From IMG/VR virus record IMGVR_UViG_3300017963_000231, positions 1 through 64,000 of that record: DNA of 64,000 bases. One strand, 5' to 3'. Below are positions 30,291-37,614 of this stretch, in pieces. A program made the translations under genes and the position numbers. The notes under the pieces were generated by a model. It was not told the DNA's origin. It did not search any database and worked only from the letters and a program-made list of their open reading frames with translations. This DNA is from a virus. The stretch's first letter is position 1. Every line of letters begins with the position of its first letter.

Positions 30291-30483
30291 ATGGAAAGCC
30301 GGGTTTTACCAGTGGCTATCTTTTAGGTTGCCTCCTACTCTCGTGTATTTTACTGCGATTAGGCTAATGGCTCACGTAACTACGCATTAATACTCAACAT
30401 ATAATGTGAGTGATGCGCGTGCTTTGGATGTTATACAATCTTGGGAGGATTTTTTTCAGATTTATGGTGAAAAAAGTTCTTGA
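30283..30483 (+). pseudogene. Small phage gene with in-frame TAA
   Basis: MSRWK...LPPTLVYFTAIRLMAHVTTH*YSTYNVSDARALDVIQSW; stop at 30388-30390. Confidence 0.5.
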
Positions 30484-30508
30484 CAAACGGGAATAGACCG
30501 GTTATAAT
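30480..30508 (+). promoter_or_regulatory. Consensus sigma70 promoter
   Basis: TTGACA-17-TATAAT. Confidence 0.9.
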
Positions 30509-31016: not shown

Positions 31017-31910
31017 ATGGAATTCAATAAGCACAACAATGACTTAGTACGTAGGTTAAAGGTTCGCAAGGAGGAGTTCGAGGAGGAGAAGGAGATGCTC
31101 CTGAATCATCCTGGCGTTACTGAGGAAGGGCTAAAAATCACTTTGGCTTGGTTGGATCCTATGCTTGAGGATCTGGAGAATAAAATCAGGGGGTTAGAGG
31201 GATGACGGGTGGCGGTGTAGTCAAGGAAAAGGTTTTCATTGAAAAGGTTTTCATTGTTCACATGATTGGAAATCCTACTGATTTTCATGGGAATAAGACT
31301 AATTTTCTCAATCTTGTGGAACGGGTTAAGAAGATTGATGAGGTTAGAGGGTCTAGTTTTGCAGATATCGTGGAGCATTGCATCAAAGTGAAGCAAAGTC
31401 TTATCGAATCACGGCATGGAGTGCCCATTAATGGAGTTACGGTGGTAATGGCTCCAGGAATGGAGCATTTTGCCATTTCGATTTGTAGTGGGATGGATCA
31501 GTTTAGCAGGAAAGTAGGCCGTCTCTTGGCTTTGAATCGGTTGGCGAATAAATTTGGAGTTCTGACCATGCGACCTAAGAAACGGGTGTATTATGAAGGA
31601 TATCTGATCCTGATGCCTCCGAATAACTTCTTGGCCGATGAGGCTACCAAAAGAATCAAAATTCCCGATATTCGGGAGGAGTTGGCGTGGCTGGGGGTGT
31701 GGGATGGAGAAGAATCAGGCCGTTGAGAAGCAGTGTTGTTTTATTTGTGAGAAACCGTCGAATTGTCATTGGAAATGCGATTGGTTTGACGGTTATTTTG
31801 ATTGCAGTGGTAAGGTTCCTTGTGGGTCGTGTCGAAAGTTTAAGCGGTGTGAACCTTTAATTAAGGTTTGTGTTGTAAGTGACGATAATAAGTCAGTTTT
31901 ACCAATTTGA
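31017..31910 (+). other. Three hypothetical genes (31017-31205, 31202-31726, 31704-31910)
   Basis: Overlapping ORFs; the middle one has a C..DQFSRKVGR..A..R phage motif and the last is Cys-rich. Confidence 0.65.
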
Positions 31911-31927: not shown

Positions 31928-32704
31928 ATGAAAGAGGCTAAGGTAGGAATGATCGATCTCGGAAATACCGGGATGGATGTAGGGTCTGAGCTTTATGATA
32001 TTTGGCGGGTGAAGATCAAACTTCGGAATGTGGTTTACGGCGGGGTGCCCAAGGATCCGAAAATAATTCAGAAGTGGATTGATGAGAAGATCAAGAAGGC
32101 CATTAAGGCCGGGCATGACATCACGCCGGAAATCGCGGAGGAAGAGCGGAAAAGGATCATGGAGACTCTGAATCTGGATGAGGACTCTAAGTGGTGCGGG
32201 TTCAAGGATATCTATCAGGGCGAAGAGGTTGGGCCGTATCTGGACGGCTACAATTTCAAGGCGATGATCCGAGAAGGGGCTACTCAAACCGGAGCCATGC
32301 TCCTTCGGTTCTCAAATAACCGGGGACTTCGCCAGCATTATCAGCATGGGATGCATGTCAAGGCAGGGGACGGCAAAAGCGATATTATCAGGTTGGGTAA
32401 GGTGGATGGTCAAGAAGAGTTTGTGGGCCATGTCAAGACTCCTCAAGGCGAAAAATCCATCCTTTCTCGGCATGATTATGTGGGATCGAGGGAACTTGAA
32501 TTCCAGGTTTGGAGCCTCGCGGTAGGTATCCTGGATGATGAATTGTTGGCCACCATCTTGAAGGCTACTCAGGAGATTGGACTTGGGGCTTGCCGGTCCA
32601 GGGAGTTGAGCAAGTTCGATCTTGTGGAGATGGAGCGGATTCAGGTAGGGAAGATCGACCATTTTCTCAAGATGAAGGCCAAGAAAGGGAAAAAAGACGC
32701 ATAA
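31928..32704 (+). CDS. Stand-alone Cas7/RAMP-like RNA-binding protein
   Basis: N-terminal strand RVKIKL..VYGGVP, PYLDGYNFKAMIREG (compare Csm3 P.IPGSSLKG.LR), C-terminal Gly loop IGLGACRSRELSKF. Confidence 0.7.
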   Translation: MKEAKVGMIDLGNTGMDVGSELYDIWRVKIKLRNVVYGGVPKDPKIIQKWIDEKIKKAIKAGHDITPEIAEEERKRIMETLNLDEDSKWCGFKDIYQGEEVGPYLDGYNFKAMIREGATQTGAMLLRFSNNRGLRQHYQHGMHVKAGDGKSDIIRLGKVDGQEEFVGHVKTPQGEKSILSRHDYVGSRELEFQVWSLAVGILDDELLATILKATQEIGLGACRSRELSKFDLVEMERIQVGKIDHFLKMKAKKGKKDA

Positions 32705-32721
32705 TGTGCGGAGATTTTCCC
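32687..32721. repeat. 35-bp dyad element, copy 3
   Basis: GGGAAAAAAGACGCATAATGTGCGGAGATTTTCCC. Confidence 0.8.
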
Positions 32722-32933
32722 ACAAGGAGTATGGTTTTTTCAGGCGGATGATTTTAACGCTTTCGGGATCATTTTAGCGTGAGGGGATTCATTTCCGATT
32801 TTTGTGGATGATTGGGCTTCTTGTGGGAAGTGGAGGGTCAACTTAGAGTTGACGGGAGTTATCGGCCCCTCCCGGCTGAGAATGACTTTGAAACGGCGGG
32901 GTTTCAGGGTAATTTGATCTTTGACAATTCAGT

Positions 32934-33400
32934 GGGACAAGTCAGGCTAGATCAGTACAAATCATGGGGACTTATCTACTCTGTGCAATACTACTCAGTT
33001 CAAATCGAGAGGACTTTTCCTTGCGCTACCTATCGGAACGGCAAGACTGATCCAGTCATCTCAACTTATATCAAATCGGAGCGACTTTGCGTTACCAGTC
33101 CACTCAGGTCGTTATGACTCATCGGATCATCTCAACTCGTGTCTAGAGGACCAATCAGCTAGAGGCAAATCGGAACGTATCCATGGGACTAATCTAATCA
33201 AATCTGTTCTGAGAGACTACACTATACAACGCACTACGAAACGGTATGACCACTCATGACGGAGCAAGGCGAAGCTATGCCCAGGGACTTATCTAATCAA
33301 ATCTGTTCTGAGAGACTAGGCACTTCATTACCTATCATTGTGACATATCAATTCGATTCCAGGGGACATATCAAACCGCTACTGATCGATACGGAGGGAC
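32934..33400 (+). repeat. Pentamer-periodic array: 14 units of NNGAC-(NNNNC)x3-7-NNN, putative guide RNA array
   Basis: NNGAC at 32934, 32967, 33010, 33043, 33081, 33114, 33147, 33185, 33213, 33246, 33284, 33312, 33340, 33363, 33396; 67 of 70 internal pentamers end in C. Confidence 0.9.
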
Positions 33401-33405
33401 AAAAT

Positions 33406-33993
33406 ATGAAATTAATGGTTTGCAATAAATGCGGAGATGTGATTTTTCCTCGCGGGGAAGCGGGGATATGGAAGTGGTGTATTTGCGGAAACATTGGAGG
33501 CATGTACGAGGACGGGTTGAAGTTTCTTGTGGCGATTGACGATCCGGATTATGCTCGGGTTGTGGGGATCGATAACAATGTTCTCGTAGGGAACTGTGAC
33601 TTAGGGGAGATATGGAAGCAAAAGCCGGGTGATCCAGCTTCCGGACGTAACCTGAAGGAGATATCCATTACCGAGGCCAGACGGGTTTACGGGTACTCTG
33701 GAGAGGCTTCGGATACTCTTGTGATCGACTTGGCTAAGGTGGTAGGGGTAGTTCCATCTGATTCGAGCCCGTGCTTTTCGGAAATGGTGTTCCATCTTGT
33801 CATGAAGGCTGATCGTATTAATAGGGAGAGGCTCAGAGCTATCTTCCCTATTTATGTTCAAATGGTGGATAGATTCCAGCTTAAAGACGGGGTTATCGCT
33901 CATCCTCAGCATCCGGAGATGGGGTTTTATGAGCCTTGCGGGGATAAGGGCTATCAGTGGCGATATCCTTTAGATACGGAGATAAGCAAGTAA
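33406..33993 (+). CDS. Hypothetical protein with N-terminal Zn finger
   Basis: CNKCGD...WCICG; SD GGAGGG overlaps the last array boundary. Confidence 0.7.
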   Translation: MKLMVCNKCGDVIFPRGEAGIWKWCICGNIGGMYEDGLKFLVAIDDPDYARVVGIDNNVLVGNCDLGEIWKQKPGDPASGRNLKEISITEARRVYGYSGEASDTLVIDLAKVVGVVPSDSSPCFSEMVFHLVMKADRINRERLRAIFPIYVQMVDRFQLKDGVIAHPQHPEMGFYEPCGDKGYQWRYPLDTEISK

Positions 33994-33997
33994 AAAC

Positions 33998-34025
33998 GGG
34001 GGCTTCGGCCCCCTAAATTTTTTTC
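33998..34025 (+). terminator. Rho-independent terminator
   Basis: GGGGGC-TTCG-GCCCCC followed by TAAATTTTTTT. Confidence 0.8.
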
Positions 34026-34034
34026 ATTTTTTTC

Positions 34035-34063
34035 TTGACAAACGGTTTTATAGGTGTTATACT
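34035..34063 (+). promoter_or_regulatory. Early promoter, copy 4
   Basis: TTGACAAACGGTTTTATAGGTGTTATACT. Confidence 0.9.
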
Positions 34064-34130
34064 AGATTTTACAATCGAATAACGGGAAACAAGCAAGGCA
34101 AGACGTTAAGGAAATAAGGAGGGGAGCAAA

Positions 34131-34301
34131 ATGAAAAGCATCAAGGAATTAGAGATAGACATCATCGAGGCGGAAGAGGCCATCGAGATGGAAAATAACC
34201 CTGAAATGATCCAGTTTTGGGAAGAGGAAATCAAAGACACAAAGGCGTTGATCGATGAGATCCAGTGGGCTCTTCACATGGTTCCGGCGGTCACAAAGTA
34301 A
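34131..34301 (+). CDS. Small early protein (56 aa, absent from the ORF track)
   Basis: AGGAGG SD directly after the promoter leader; MKSIKELEIDII... Confidence 0.65.
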   Translation: MKSIKELEIDIIEAEEAIEMENNPEMIQFWEEEIKDTKALIDEIQWALHMVPAVTK

Positions 34302-34315
34302 GGAGGGAAAGTAGG

Positions 34316-35158
34316 ATGGCTGAAGCTAAGGCAAGTGAGAAAAGGTTGGTTCCGGCCCTAATCGATGGGTATGTGGACTTTCCTTGGATGAAAATCCTGG
34401 ATGATGGTATCGAGCATAATGATCGAGTTTTGCTCGTTGGCCATTGCGGGGTTGGAAAGACCAGTTCCGTTGAGCAATTGGCGGCTCGCGGGAATTATGA
34501 GTGCCGTCGGGTCAATCTGAATGGGCAAACTACCATTTCTGATATGGTGGGCCAGTGGATTGCCAAGGACGGTGAGACGGTGTGGGTTGATGGGATCGTT
34601 CCTCAAGCGATGAAGAACGGCCAGTGGCTCATTCTGGATGAGATCGATTTCGCGATGCCGGAGATTCTGGCAGTGCTCCATTCCGTGCTGGAAGATGATG
34701 GATTCCTTGTTCTGGCGGAAAAAGATGCTGAGGTTGTACGGGCTCATAAGGATTTCAGGGTAATTGCTACTGCCAATAGCATTGGGGCCGATGCCGTGGA
34801 TCGGGGCCTTTATCAGGGAACTCAGGTGATGAATGAGGCGTTTCTTGATCGATGGTCTTGTGTACTCAAGATTGGATGGCCCCCGCAAGAGATTGAGGCT
34901 TCCATCCTGGAAAAGCGGGTCAAGGGGCTCCCTACTTCCGTGGCGGTCCTGATTGTCCGGATTGCTACGGACCTTCGAGGGGCTTTGGAGAAAAATGAGA
35001 TCATGACCACGTTTTCTCCTCGAAAGTGCCTCCAGTTGGCGGAAAAGGCCGTGAGGTATGGGGAGGTCATGCGGGCGGCTCAGGTAACAATTTTCAATAA
35101 GCAACCCGATGAGGAACGCAAGGTTTTTGAGGCAGTGTTTCAGCGGTGGTTGGGATAA
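34316..35158 (+). CDS. CobS/MoxR-like AAA+ ATPase
   Basis: GHCGVGKT, LILDEID, FRVIATAN, NEAFLDR, SPR. Confidence 0.9.
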   Translation: MAEAKASEKRLVPALIDGYVDFPWMKILDDGIEHNDRVLLVGHCGVGKTSSVEQLAARGNYECRRVNLNGQTTISDMVGQWIAKDGETVWVDGIVPQAMKNGQWLILDEIDFAMPEILAVLHSVLEDDGFLVLAEKDAEVVRAHKDFRVIATANSIGADAVDRGLYQGTQVMNEAFLDRWSCVLKIGWPPQEIEASILEKRVKGLPTSVAVLIVRIATDLRGALEKNEIMTTFSPRKCLQLAEKAVRYGEVMRAAQVTIFNKQPDEERKVFEAVFQRWLG

Positions 35159-35691: not shown

Positions 35692-37614
35692 ATGGAATCG
35701 GCCTTAGCAAAAGTAGCGAAAATCATGGCAAGGGAATACGGGTTGAATGTCCGGTTCACCGGGTCCGGGGCTTGCGTTAACCTTAAAACCAAGGAGATGC
35801 AACTTCCGGCCCTGGATGATCCGGTCATTTTTGAGACCATTTCCGGGTATTTGGACCATGAGGTTGCTCATGTAAGGTTTACGGATATCGTTCCGTCAAT
35901 TAAGGATTCTCTGACCATGGATCTTTTCCGGGTGTTGGAGGATGTGAGGGTTGATCGGGATATGGGCAATCTTTACACCGGCTCCCATAAGAATATCGGG
36001 CGGACTCGGAAGGCCGTGTATGAGGCTCTTTTCACGGAAGCCAATGACCTAAATGAGATGTTCTGGATGGATATTCTGGAAATGACTTCGGGCCGGATGG
36101 AGTTCGATGAAATGGGTCCGATGGCTCAGGAAGCCGTTCTCAAAGCCCTTGATCTTTTCATGGGTCTGGATGAGATAAAGACCACGGCTGATTGTGTAAG
36201 CCTTTGCGAGAAGATTGCCAAGCGGTGGAGGGATACCGATGCCAATCCTACTCCTCAGCCGTCTCCTGGAGGCTCTGAGGAGGAGCAAGAGGGGGATAGT
36301 GATGGTTCCTCTGATTCTGGCGGTCAGGGGGATTCTGAGGGCGACTCAAAGGAAGGATCTAAGGGGGGATCAAAGAAAAAAGGCAAGAAGGGCTCGAAAA
36401 AAGAGGGAGAGGAAGATAAGGACGGTGAGGGCAAGAAAAAAGGCAAGGGAAAAAAGAAGGGCGAGGGCAAGAAAAAAGATAAGAAGGGCGATAAAACGGG
36501 AGATGTAGACTCTCCTGATGCGAATAGCAACAAGCATGCTCCGAAGGATGGAGGAACGGAAGCGGCGGGTATCCGGCGGGAGGATGTGGATATCGCCATT
36601 ATTCGGGATTACGATAAACTGGATTTGATCGATCCTGAAAAAGCGTTGGATCACGGGATCAATAAGATCATAAACGCTCAGGTCAAGAAGTGTGCGAATG
36701 ATGTTCATATCCCTTTTACCACGGAATATGATGTGGTTAAAGACGATTCAAAATCCCGGAACACGATAAAAGAGAAAGCCATAAGGGAGGAAGTTAAAAG
36801 TACCGTTGGAGTGTTGATCAGGCGGCTTCAGATGGTTCTTTTGGCTCGGGATCGGGCAAGGGATCGGTTTGAGCTTGATCGGGGTAGGATCGATTCGAGG
36901 AGGCTTCATCAGCTTATCCATAAAACGTCTAATCGAGTGTTTAAGACTCGGGTAGAGGCCGAAACCGAGAGTACCGCCGTTTATCTCTTAGTTGATTGCT
37001 CGGGTTCGATGGGAGGAAAGAAAATTATAGCGGCTCAGAAGGCGGCTTGCGCGTTTTCAGCTTGTCTCGATCAGCTTGGGATTGTGCATGAAGTAGGTAG
37101 TTTTCAGTGTGTCAAGTCTGAGGAGATAAGAAATGCGTTCGAACAATACATTGAGGCTAACGGCATGGATTGTTATGATTCTCCGTTTAATAGGTATTAT
37201 GAAATCCTTTCTCATAGCATTGTAAAGCGATTTGATCAGCCTTTTGCGCAAGGGGCTTTCGCGAATTTAATGGCGGGGTGTAACAATTGTGACGGTGAAT
37301 CCGTGAGGGTAGCGGCTCGTCTTTTGGCTCAGAGGCCGGAAAAACGTAAGATTCTTATGGTGTTTTCGGACGGGATGCCTAGTTGTTATTCGGACCATGA
37401 TTTGCTCCATAAGGATCTTAAAAAGGCCGTGAAGGAAATCATGGATGCCGGGATTGAGACTATTGGGGTCGGGATCAGGACCAGTGCTCCAAAGATGTTT
37501 TATCCTGATTGGATTCTGATCGATGATATAACGACTCTTCCTACGGAAGTGATCAGTCAGCTTGAGAAGTTACTCTTTAATGGGATGATCGGGAAAAAGC
37601 GGAGGGTAGCGTGA
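35692..37614 (+). CDS. CobT-like protein (HExxH domain, charged linker, vWA)
   Basis: DHEVAH...LEDVR; MIDAS DCSGSM; SDGMP. Confidence 0.88.
   Translation: MESALAKVAKIMAREYGLNVRFTGSGACVNLKTKEMQLPALDDPVIFETISGYLDHEVAHVRFTDIVPSIKDSLTMDLFRVLEDVRVDRDMGNLYTGSHKNIGRTRKAVYEALFTEANDLNEMFWMDILEMTSGRMEFDEMGPMAQEAVLKALDLFMGLDEIKTTADCVSLCEKIAKRWRDTDANPTPQPSPGGSEEEQEGDSDGSSDSGGQGDSEGDSKEGSKGGSKKKGKKGSKKEGEEDKDGEGKKKGKGKKKGEGKKKDKKGDKTGDVDSPDANSNKHAPKDGGTEAAGIRREDVDIAIIRDYDKLDLIDPEKALDHGINKIINAQVKKCANDVHIPFTTEYDVVKDDSKSRNTIKEKAIREEVKSTVGVLIRRLQMVLLARDRARDRFELDRGRIDSRRLHQLIHKTSNRVFKTRVEAETESTAVYLLVDCSGSMGGKKIIAAQKAACAFSACLDQLGIVHEVGSFQCVKSEEIRNAFEQYIEANGMDCYDSPFNRYYEILSHSIVKRFDQPFAQGAFANLMAGCNNCDGESVRVAARLLAQRPEKRKILMVFSDGMPSCYSDHDLLHKDLKKAVKEIMDAGIETIGVGIRTSAPKMFYPDWILIDDITTLPTEVISQLEKLLFNGMIGKKRRVA

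Follow-up and report, generated by a model that had tools for sequence, protein, structure and literature searches.

What kind of system is formed by a lone RAMP-type gene and a tract, some 475 nt long, in which nearly every fifth base is C, when both sit together in the genome of a tailed phage? This question is raised by positions 31928-33400 of a 64,000-nucleotide stretch of DNA (hereafter "the window"), which covers positions 1 to 64,000 of IMG/VR virus record IMGVR_UViG_3300017963_000231. An earlier note, made from the sequence, had proposed a non-CRISPR RNA-guided system, possibly of a distinct class. We conclude that the locus is very probably a VIPR (Viral Interference Programmable Repeat) system belonging to a divergent branch, in which the guide repeats are anchored on C rather than on GGY. 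Because the protein is homologous at the family-profile level to the Vipr of phage SUSP1, we assign the locus to VIPR and not to a new class. The two elements that carry this conclusion are as follows.

31928-32704, + strand: vipr homologue encoding a lone RAMP-type protein of 258 aa, recognised by family-profile alignment with SUSP1 Vipr
32926-33400, + strand: guide array, a 13-nt stub and then 14 units of the form (NNNxC)n + NNN + RRGAC, with n = 3-7

The pentamer array is real. Read on the + strand, 32926-33400 parses without gaps into 15 consecutive GAC-to-GAC units, the first of which is the 13-nt stub. The other 14 measure 33, 43, 33, 38, 33, 33, 38, 28, 33, 38, 28, 28, 23, and 33 nt, and every one of these lengths equals 3 mod 5. 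Together they contain 70 internal pentamers, 67 of which end in C. Position 4 is most often T (44 pentamers; the rest comprise 14 with A, 10 with G, and 2 with C), and positions 1-3 hold mixed bases without a strong preference. The unit lengths, the 70 pentamers, the 67 ending in C, and the 44 with T at position 4 had all been given in the earlier note, and our own parse reproduced each figure. Successive units are joined by separators of 8 nt, which move the C phase by +3; GAC is invariant in all 15 separators, and their fourth position is a purine in 15 of 15. Self-identity of the array reached 0.39 at lag 5 and 0.38 at lag 10, with neighboring lags at ~0.19-0.23. The corresponding periodicity statistic was 0.177, against 0.004 ± 0.016 for 1000 dinucleotide shuffles (z = 10.7), none of which scored as high. 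Across the full 86,828-bp record, scanning windows over the array scored 0.16-0.20, and all the remaining ones (3466 scanned) scored at most 0.068. As had been claimed, the grammar is unlike the GGY/NN consensus of known VIPR repeats: the + strand pentamers read NNNxC and contain no GG. The minus strand of the array reads GNNNN. Contigs that we obtained for the locus from four DNA runs were low-depth fragments with near-identical flanks and with the array partly uncovered; one variant contig carried 5 substitutions and a 6-nt insertion.

Within the array, the two 28-nt units at 33190-33217 and 33289-33316 differ by a single mismatch, at position 2 of the first pentamer, which points to a recent duplication of a guide inside the array. 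A larger internal duplication of 71 nt was also considered and was convincing for these two units only.

On sequence grounds, the product of 31928-32704 is a Vipr homologue of a divergent branch. It matched nothing in Pfam, PHROG, PADLOC, or NCBIfam, and the clusters to which 10 family members belong supplied no name. Six close relatives were found at 66-70% identity, and an exhaustive search yielded 444 cluster representatives at E up to 0.001. The reference for comparison was SUSP1, an Escherichia phage with a type II VIPR locus that comprises Vipr, vap1, and four vrRNAs, as described in the preprint text (10.64898/2026.04.26.720920 and 10.64898/2026.04.26.720927; PDB 36pp). We located this locus through its YNNGG runs and checked that the 195-aa open reading frame (ORF) beside them is PDB chain 36pp, "SUSP1 Vipr protein." When a profile of 68 sequences from the window family was aligned with a profile of 38 sequences from the SUSP1 Vipr family, hhalign returned a probability of 95.5% (E = 1.6e-8) over 137 columns, which span helix 1 to the glycine-rich loop. 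Searches with hidden Markov models (HMMs) pointed the same way in both directions. The SUSP1-family HMM ranked the window gene first among 1006 six-frame ORFs of the phage (E = 0.0025), and the window-family HMM ranked the Vipr gene first among 832 six-frame ORFs of SUSP1 (E = 0.15). It is because the family profiles align and these reciprocal genome-wide searches each place the right ORF first that we regard the protein as a Vipr homologue.

Signals for the RAMP fold itself (RRM core, glycine-rich loop, and thumb) were fainter. A PDB search with the single window sequence gave irrelevant matches only, and the family profile gave seven matches at E below 10, all seven of them to the glycine-rich loops (G-loops) of Csm4 or Cas7 at marginal E values of 0.15-1.1. 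The family conserves a G-loop-like motif, GLGAxRS..KF. An existing Atlas model of the window protein (predicted template modeling score 0.71) had structural neighbors among viral clusters only. The description of a lone RAMP-type gene is supported by the profile alignment with the SUSP1 Vipr family and by the uniform character of the weak PDB matches. Its isolation from CRISPR was upheld as well. No CRISPR-like repeats occur in the 64-kb window, which has only three two-copy direct-repeat families of at least 22 nt, and no cas or defense family was matched by the seven neighboring proteins searched against PADLOC and NCBIfam, or by the seven searched against Pfam and PHROGs.

If the array belongs with the gene, the pairing should recur wherever the gene does. 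Among metagenome loci, five carry a gene 62-70% identical to that of the window, and three of these (L001, L003, and L004, with genes 66-70% identical) extend far enough downstream to be judged; the other two are cut off too early for a judgment. All three have a 5-nt periodic array with C at each fifth base and with GAGAC or GGGAC as punctuation. The Microcystis phage Mae-JY09 encodes a homologue of 28% identity and, directly 3' of that gene and on its strand, carries NNNCC pentamers with GAC marks. It was the sole match when two family members were compared by tblastn with 50,697 phage records, and it is the only cultured phage with a detectable homologue. No further relatives came from searches of viral and genome contig sets with alignment A1 or of viral contigs with protein P0008. 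The periodicity for which the earlier note had proposed to test DNA downstream of homologues is thus present in every metagenome locus with enough flank and in Mae-JY09, and we conclude that the array is conserved beside homologues down to 28% identity. Guide content is almost wholly different between loci, and the grammar is kept.

These comparisons also bear on whether the tract could be a DNA or leader element of another kind (a replication element, for example, or a repeat bound by some protein, or a structured 5' leader belonging to the downstream gene) that lies beside the gene only through shared phage ancestry. Three of the four supporting loci (L001, L003, and L004) share the gene order of the window, so the adjacency could have been inherited in these. 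However, an array of this kind also follows immediately upon the gene of the unrelated Mae-JY09, and between loci the content of the units turns over while their grammar stays. A 5-nt period with one fixed letter also fits the binding of one protomer per pentamer, as in the solved SUSP1 filament, where G1, G2, and Y3 are flipped out (10.64898/2026.04.26.720927, as far as its text describes). Nor does the tract behave like a structured element: it shows no fold signal above shuffles, no relevant Rfam family was matched (E up to 1) by this region of the window or by L001, L003, L004, and L007, and no hairpin recurs per unit, the units abutting through their 8-nt separators without a conserved structured 3' tail. 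We therefore consider a non-guide element highly improbable.

Which strand would supply the guides is suggested by the layout of the transcription unit, which has the following additional parts.

30480-30508, + strand: sigma-70-type promoter, TTGACA-17 nt-TATAAT, matching the consensus at 12 of 12 positions and heading the unit with vipr, the array, and the downstream gene
32705-32925, + strand: vipr-array spacer, ending in the TCTTTGACA box (32918-32926)
33406-33993, + strand: downstream gene for a 195-aa protein with an N-terminal CxxC...CxC motif, starting 6 nt past the last GAC
33998-34013, + strand: strong intrinsic terminator with six G-C pairs and a T run, readable on either strand, closing the unit

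Promoter, gene, 475-nt array, small gene, and terminator together occupy 3.5 kb, and the next promoter follows at 34035. The array lies between a + strand promoter and a terminator, from which we infer that its sense strand is transcribed. Since the last separator contains the ribosome-binding site of the downstream gene, + strand RNA has to run through the array. The guide RNA is thus quite likely the sense (+) strand.

The alternative is that the system is the same but takes its guide RNA from the minus strand, in which case the repeats would be G-anchored NNNNG and the C pattern only their complement. There are good reasons to take this seriously. The Methods of 10.64898/2026.04.26.720920 give NNNGG, YNNNG, and NNNNG as other forms of the repeat, the pattern on the minus strand is GNNNN here and GGNNN in Mae-JY09, and the published Vipr reads guanines (10.64898/2026.04.26.720927, according to its text). 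Yet the array is enclosed in a + strand operon running from a 12/12 promoter to a strong terminator, and the following gene has its ribosome-binding site right beside it. No minus-strand promoter-like site was found downstream of the array (33400-34400), and because the terminator at 33998-34013 can also be read on the minus strand, it would stop antisense transcription arriving from further downstream. Moreover, the SUSP1 vrRNAs lie on the vipr strand, and the residues with which SUSP1 Vipr reads G1 and G2 are not kept in the alignment. On balance, minus-strand guides seem distinctly unlikely to us, and we proceed with sense guides.

To which bases of the pentamer does specificity belong? Four pairs of homologous guides are common to L001, L003, and L004, giving 19 pentamer pairs. 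Across these, the differences at positions 1-5 numbered 1, 0, 3, 11, and 1, so that position 4 accounted for 11 of 16 (binomial p = 3e-5). The base at position 4 follows genome composition, with T prevailing in the window and either A or C in L001 and L004. This concentration of differences indicates that position 4 is free, C5 fixed, and N1-N3 constrained, and it suggests that N1-N3 hold the specificity of the guide. The decoded guides were then considered as contiguous N1-N3 strings, among which one stands out.

32972-33014, + strand: guide 2, seven pentamers, whose contiguous N1-N3 bases form a 21-mer with TATACT and a perfect 16-nt palindrome

The TATACT in this 21-mer is the -10 hexamer of the phage's own promoters, and the palindrome overlaps it. 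An arm of 8 bp arises with N1-N3 decoding only, other choices of three positions giving arms of at most 6 bp in any array; the probability of an arm of at least 7 was 0.027 (3000 permutations of triplet order, 40 guides). A reading of the guides as peptides found nothing in the local data.

We tentatively propose a C-anchored VIPR code in which a sense array punctuated by RRGAC would display N1-N3 and bury xC, so that each pentamer would read three contiguous base pairs, and in which the targets would be promoters or operators of rival phages rather than coding sequence. The published code must be weighed against this. In the SUSP1 filament, each pentamer pairs with DNA through N4 and N5 and leaves one DNA base skipped, five RNA bases thereby spanning three of DNA (10.64898/2026.04.26.720927, as given in the text). 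Transferred to the present array, N1 and N2 would pair, one DNA base would be skipped, and N3 would be carried but unread. The 1-nt skip is the only rule shown experimentally in the parts of 10.64898/2026.04.26.720920 and 10.64898/2026.04.26.720927 that we consulted, and N3 does differ more between homologous guides than N1 or N2 (3 vs 1 and 0). By our own reading, all three N3 differences would also be synonymous if the triplets were codons. By contrast, N3 changes much less often than position 4 (3 vs 11 differences) and shows no base preference, and five N3 letters of guide 2 complete the 16-nt palindrome with N2 letters, which is unexpected for an unread base. We regard the published code as rather unlikely for this array, and the contiguous triplet reading is carried forward below as a provisional one.

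Decoded in this way, guide 2 has a candidate target. Its contiguous 21-mer had exact matches in four IMG/VR contigs, all of one phage unrelated to that of the window: two of the contigs are 99.99% identical over 50.9 kb, and the flanks of the site are identical in all four. The guide-2 sequence with one skipped base per triplet had no IMG/VR matches. The match falls on the -10 box and the start region of a promoter of the form TTGACT-17-TATACT, one of ten of this kind in the available 73 kb of the target phage; this one stands between divergent genes, upstream of an operon of small genes. This resembles the site expected for transcriptional silencing, although the case is thin.

Should this interpretation hold, the system might work as follows. 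Transcription on the + strand, initiated by the 30480 promoter and ended by the 33998 terminator, would yield an RNA of (NNNxC)n runs separated by NNN-RRGAC. Each pentamer would be bound by one Vipr protomer, with x4 and C5 buried and N1-N3 displayed, and each RRGAC would close one guide and open another, so that the array would comprise 14 short guides, each 3-7 pentamers long. The displayed triplets would pair with DNA at 3 bp per protomer, keeping the 5-RNA-to-3-DNA geometry of SUSP1 but with the third base read, not skipped. DNA bound in this way would be silenced, with at least one guide directed to a competing phage's promoter, at its -10 and start region. In SUSP1 Vipr, D177 and W178 read G1 and G2, and R179 contacts Y3 (10.64898/2026.04.26.720927, from the text). 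In our hhalign comparison, D177 and W178 stand opposite A221 and C222, whereas R179 stands opposite the nearly invariant R223. If C5 occupies the Y3 pocket, x4 would take the place of G2 and N3 that of G1. Because the guanine readers face A221 and C222 while the pyrimidine contact faces an arginine, the filament may have given up the two guanines, kept the pyrimidine anchor, and let N3 pair with the DNA base that is skipped in type II.

A number of results weigh against this account and its parts. At the level of the protein, hhalign of the single window sequence with SUSP1 Vipr gave a probability of 7%, and the alignment is too remote for residue-level mapping to be safe. At the level of the RNA, a hairpin at 32885-32910 looks like a terminator, yet folds no better than shuffles, and we rejected it as a terminator or leader hairpin before the array; the minus strand, in the appropriate phase, reads NNNNG (NNNGG in Mae-JY09), and both are among the repeats listed in the Methods of 10.64898/2026.04.26.720920. 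At the level of the code, Shine-Dalgarno-like words were marginally enriched in the decoded guides (p = 0.04-0.18 per array). Four other decoded guides had no matches in IMG/VR, and the other 13 window guides gave nothing above shuffled controls in the 73 kb of the target phage. For the guide-2 21-mer itself, 596 Gb of bacterial genomes contained three occurrences, each in an unrelated context and 14-60 nt before a start codon, when by our own arithmetic ~0.3 matches are expected at uniform composition and more in AT-rich DNA. Given these three unrelated occurrences, the viral match could be due to chance, or the 21-mer could be a widespread promoter-operator word. Finally, the search demanded a match at N3, so the guide-2 hit alone cannot show that N3 is read, and a match with no skip also fits a rule of two read bases (NN) and one skipped. 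We therefore treat both the triplet code and the promoter target as leads.

The bacterial occurrences were exact matches in contigs of Clostridia-type metagenome-assembled genomes (L028:657-677, L029:4407-4427, and L030:2167-2187). In L028, the 21-mer precedes an AbrB-like antitoxin/RelE-like toxin pair beside an XRE-type gene, as identified by eye from sequence. As for self-targeting, under 16 read/skip rules no decoded guide scored above shuffled controls in the phage's own genome or in L001-L005, and the sole match of 14/15 was at chance level.

The surroundings of the locus are those of a phage genome. The virus record is 86,828 bp long and estimated to be 67% complete, and the window encodes a DnaB-like helicase, a DNA polymerase, a helicase, a UvsX-like recombinase, a large terminase, a portal, and a virion protein. 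The promoter at 30480 belongs to a family of near-identical + strand promoters of this phage. Members with TTGACA, a conserved 17-nt spacer, and TATACT, all on the + strand, lie at 1519, 4196, 6127, 34035, and 35630 of the window and at 85739 and 86342 of G000. A TTGACA at 32921 was rejected as a promoter, as it has no -10 partner. Upstream, a 90-aa cysteine-rich ORF on the + strand (31638-31910) ends 18 nt before the vipr start codon and had no match in Pfam, PHROGs, PADLOC, or NCBIfam. Downstream of the locus follow CobS-like (AAA_5; 34265-35158) and CobT-like (VWA; 35692-37614) genes, in an order that is kept in L001.

Two parts of the unit have counterparts at the related loci. The TCTTTGACA box is present at the start of the array in the window and in L001, L003, and L004. 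In the latter three, the array is also followed by a homologous N-terminus of the 195-aa protein, which matched nothing in Pfam, PHROG, PADLOC, or NCBIfam. Its gene is a candidate accessory (vap-like) gene, and its adjacency to the array may reflect only the shared gene order of related phages. L001 and L003 additionally carry, between the vipr stop and the array, a conserved insert of ~200 nt flanked by two TCTTTGA boxes (L001:5930-6145 and L003:1666-1885), which is absent from the window and from L004 and had no Rfam match. Derived from two sequences only, its consensus fold was better in sense (-40.3 kcal/mol, 40 pairs including 5 compensatory ones) than in antisense (-23.7 kcal/mol, 27 pairs including 2 compensatory ones), in line with sense transcription of the array. 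A structured RNA and a small mobile insert are both possible readings of it.

How, then, does the locus compare with known systems? VIPR was first described in 2026, and in the preprint text consulted its code of two read bases and one skipped DNA base is shown for a single type. The link to VIPR that the earlier note had drawn is real, according to these preprints. Its suggestion of a distinct class gives way to that of a divergent VIPR branch, as the preprints, in the parts consulted, already mention consensus motifs other than GGY and staggered arrays. Like the SUSP1 system, the window locus pairs a lone small RAMP protein, homologous at the profile level, with pentanucleotide tandem repeats beside vipr and on its strand. 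Both are borne by phages, have no cas genes or CRISPR array, and include a second small gene. The differences are nonetheless considerable. The repeats are YNNGG in SUSP1 and NNNxC here, with only C fixed, and 14 guides of 3-7 pentamers stand against vrRNAs of ~100 nt with 9-16 repeats. Guides in the window abut through NNN-RRGAC and have no conserved 3' tail or pseudoknot of their own. The protein is also longer (258 vs 195 aa), its counterparts of the G1/G2 reader residues are not kept in the alignment, and recognition may involve three bases of each pentamer, without a skipped DNA base.

Non-canonical VIPR arrays come closer. They share the 5-nt period, a Vipr-like neighbor, and a reduced or altered fixed motif, and directly abutting guides are mentioned for them in the text consulted. 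"Staggered" arrays and the NNNGG, YNNNG, and NNNNG repeats appear in the Methods and the Fig. S18 legend of 10.64898/2026.04.26.720920, and clusters named GAC/NN, CAC/NN, WGT/NN, and TGH/NN in the consulted part of 10.64898/2026.10.21.760802. If the RNA were antisense, the present locus would be of the plain NNNNG kind among these. A C-anchored repeat on the vipr strand, RRGAC with its +3 shift, and a code without skip are not described in the consulted passages of 10.64898/2026.04.26.720920, 10.64898/2026.04.26.720927, or 10.64898/2026.10.21.760802, and a term search of the text of 10.64898/2026.10.15.759431 gave no match.

With the class 1 CRISPR filaments, in which Cas7, Csm3, or Cmr4 assemble on CRISPR RNA (crRNA), the locus shares RAMP protomers that polymerize on a guide with a fixed step, as well as the G-loop of the family profile, which weakly matches those of Csm4 and Cas7. 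crRNAs carry an 8-nt 5' handle derived from the repeat, and the 8-nt separators ending in GAC are reminiscent of this handle. By contrast, the step is 6 nt in those filaments and 5 nt here, and searches of window repeats and neighboring proteins revealed no repeat-spacer array, Cas5, Cas6, large subunit, or adaptation genes.

In the branch that the window locus would thus represent, a single C is all that stays fixed in the repeat, and specificity appears to lie in three bases per protomer. If this is true, a RAMP filament can be adapted to the reading of contiguous DNA, which would provide a second and denser programmable DNA-binding code and would help relate the 5-nt step of VIPR to the 6-nt step of CRISPR backbones; at 3.5 kb, the locus is compact enough to be tested directly in a laboratory host. 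As judged from sequence, what sets it apart from published systems is a fixed C on the gene strand, guides without tails of their own, and an array contained within an operon that runs from promoter to terminator.

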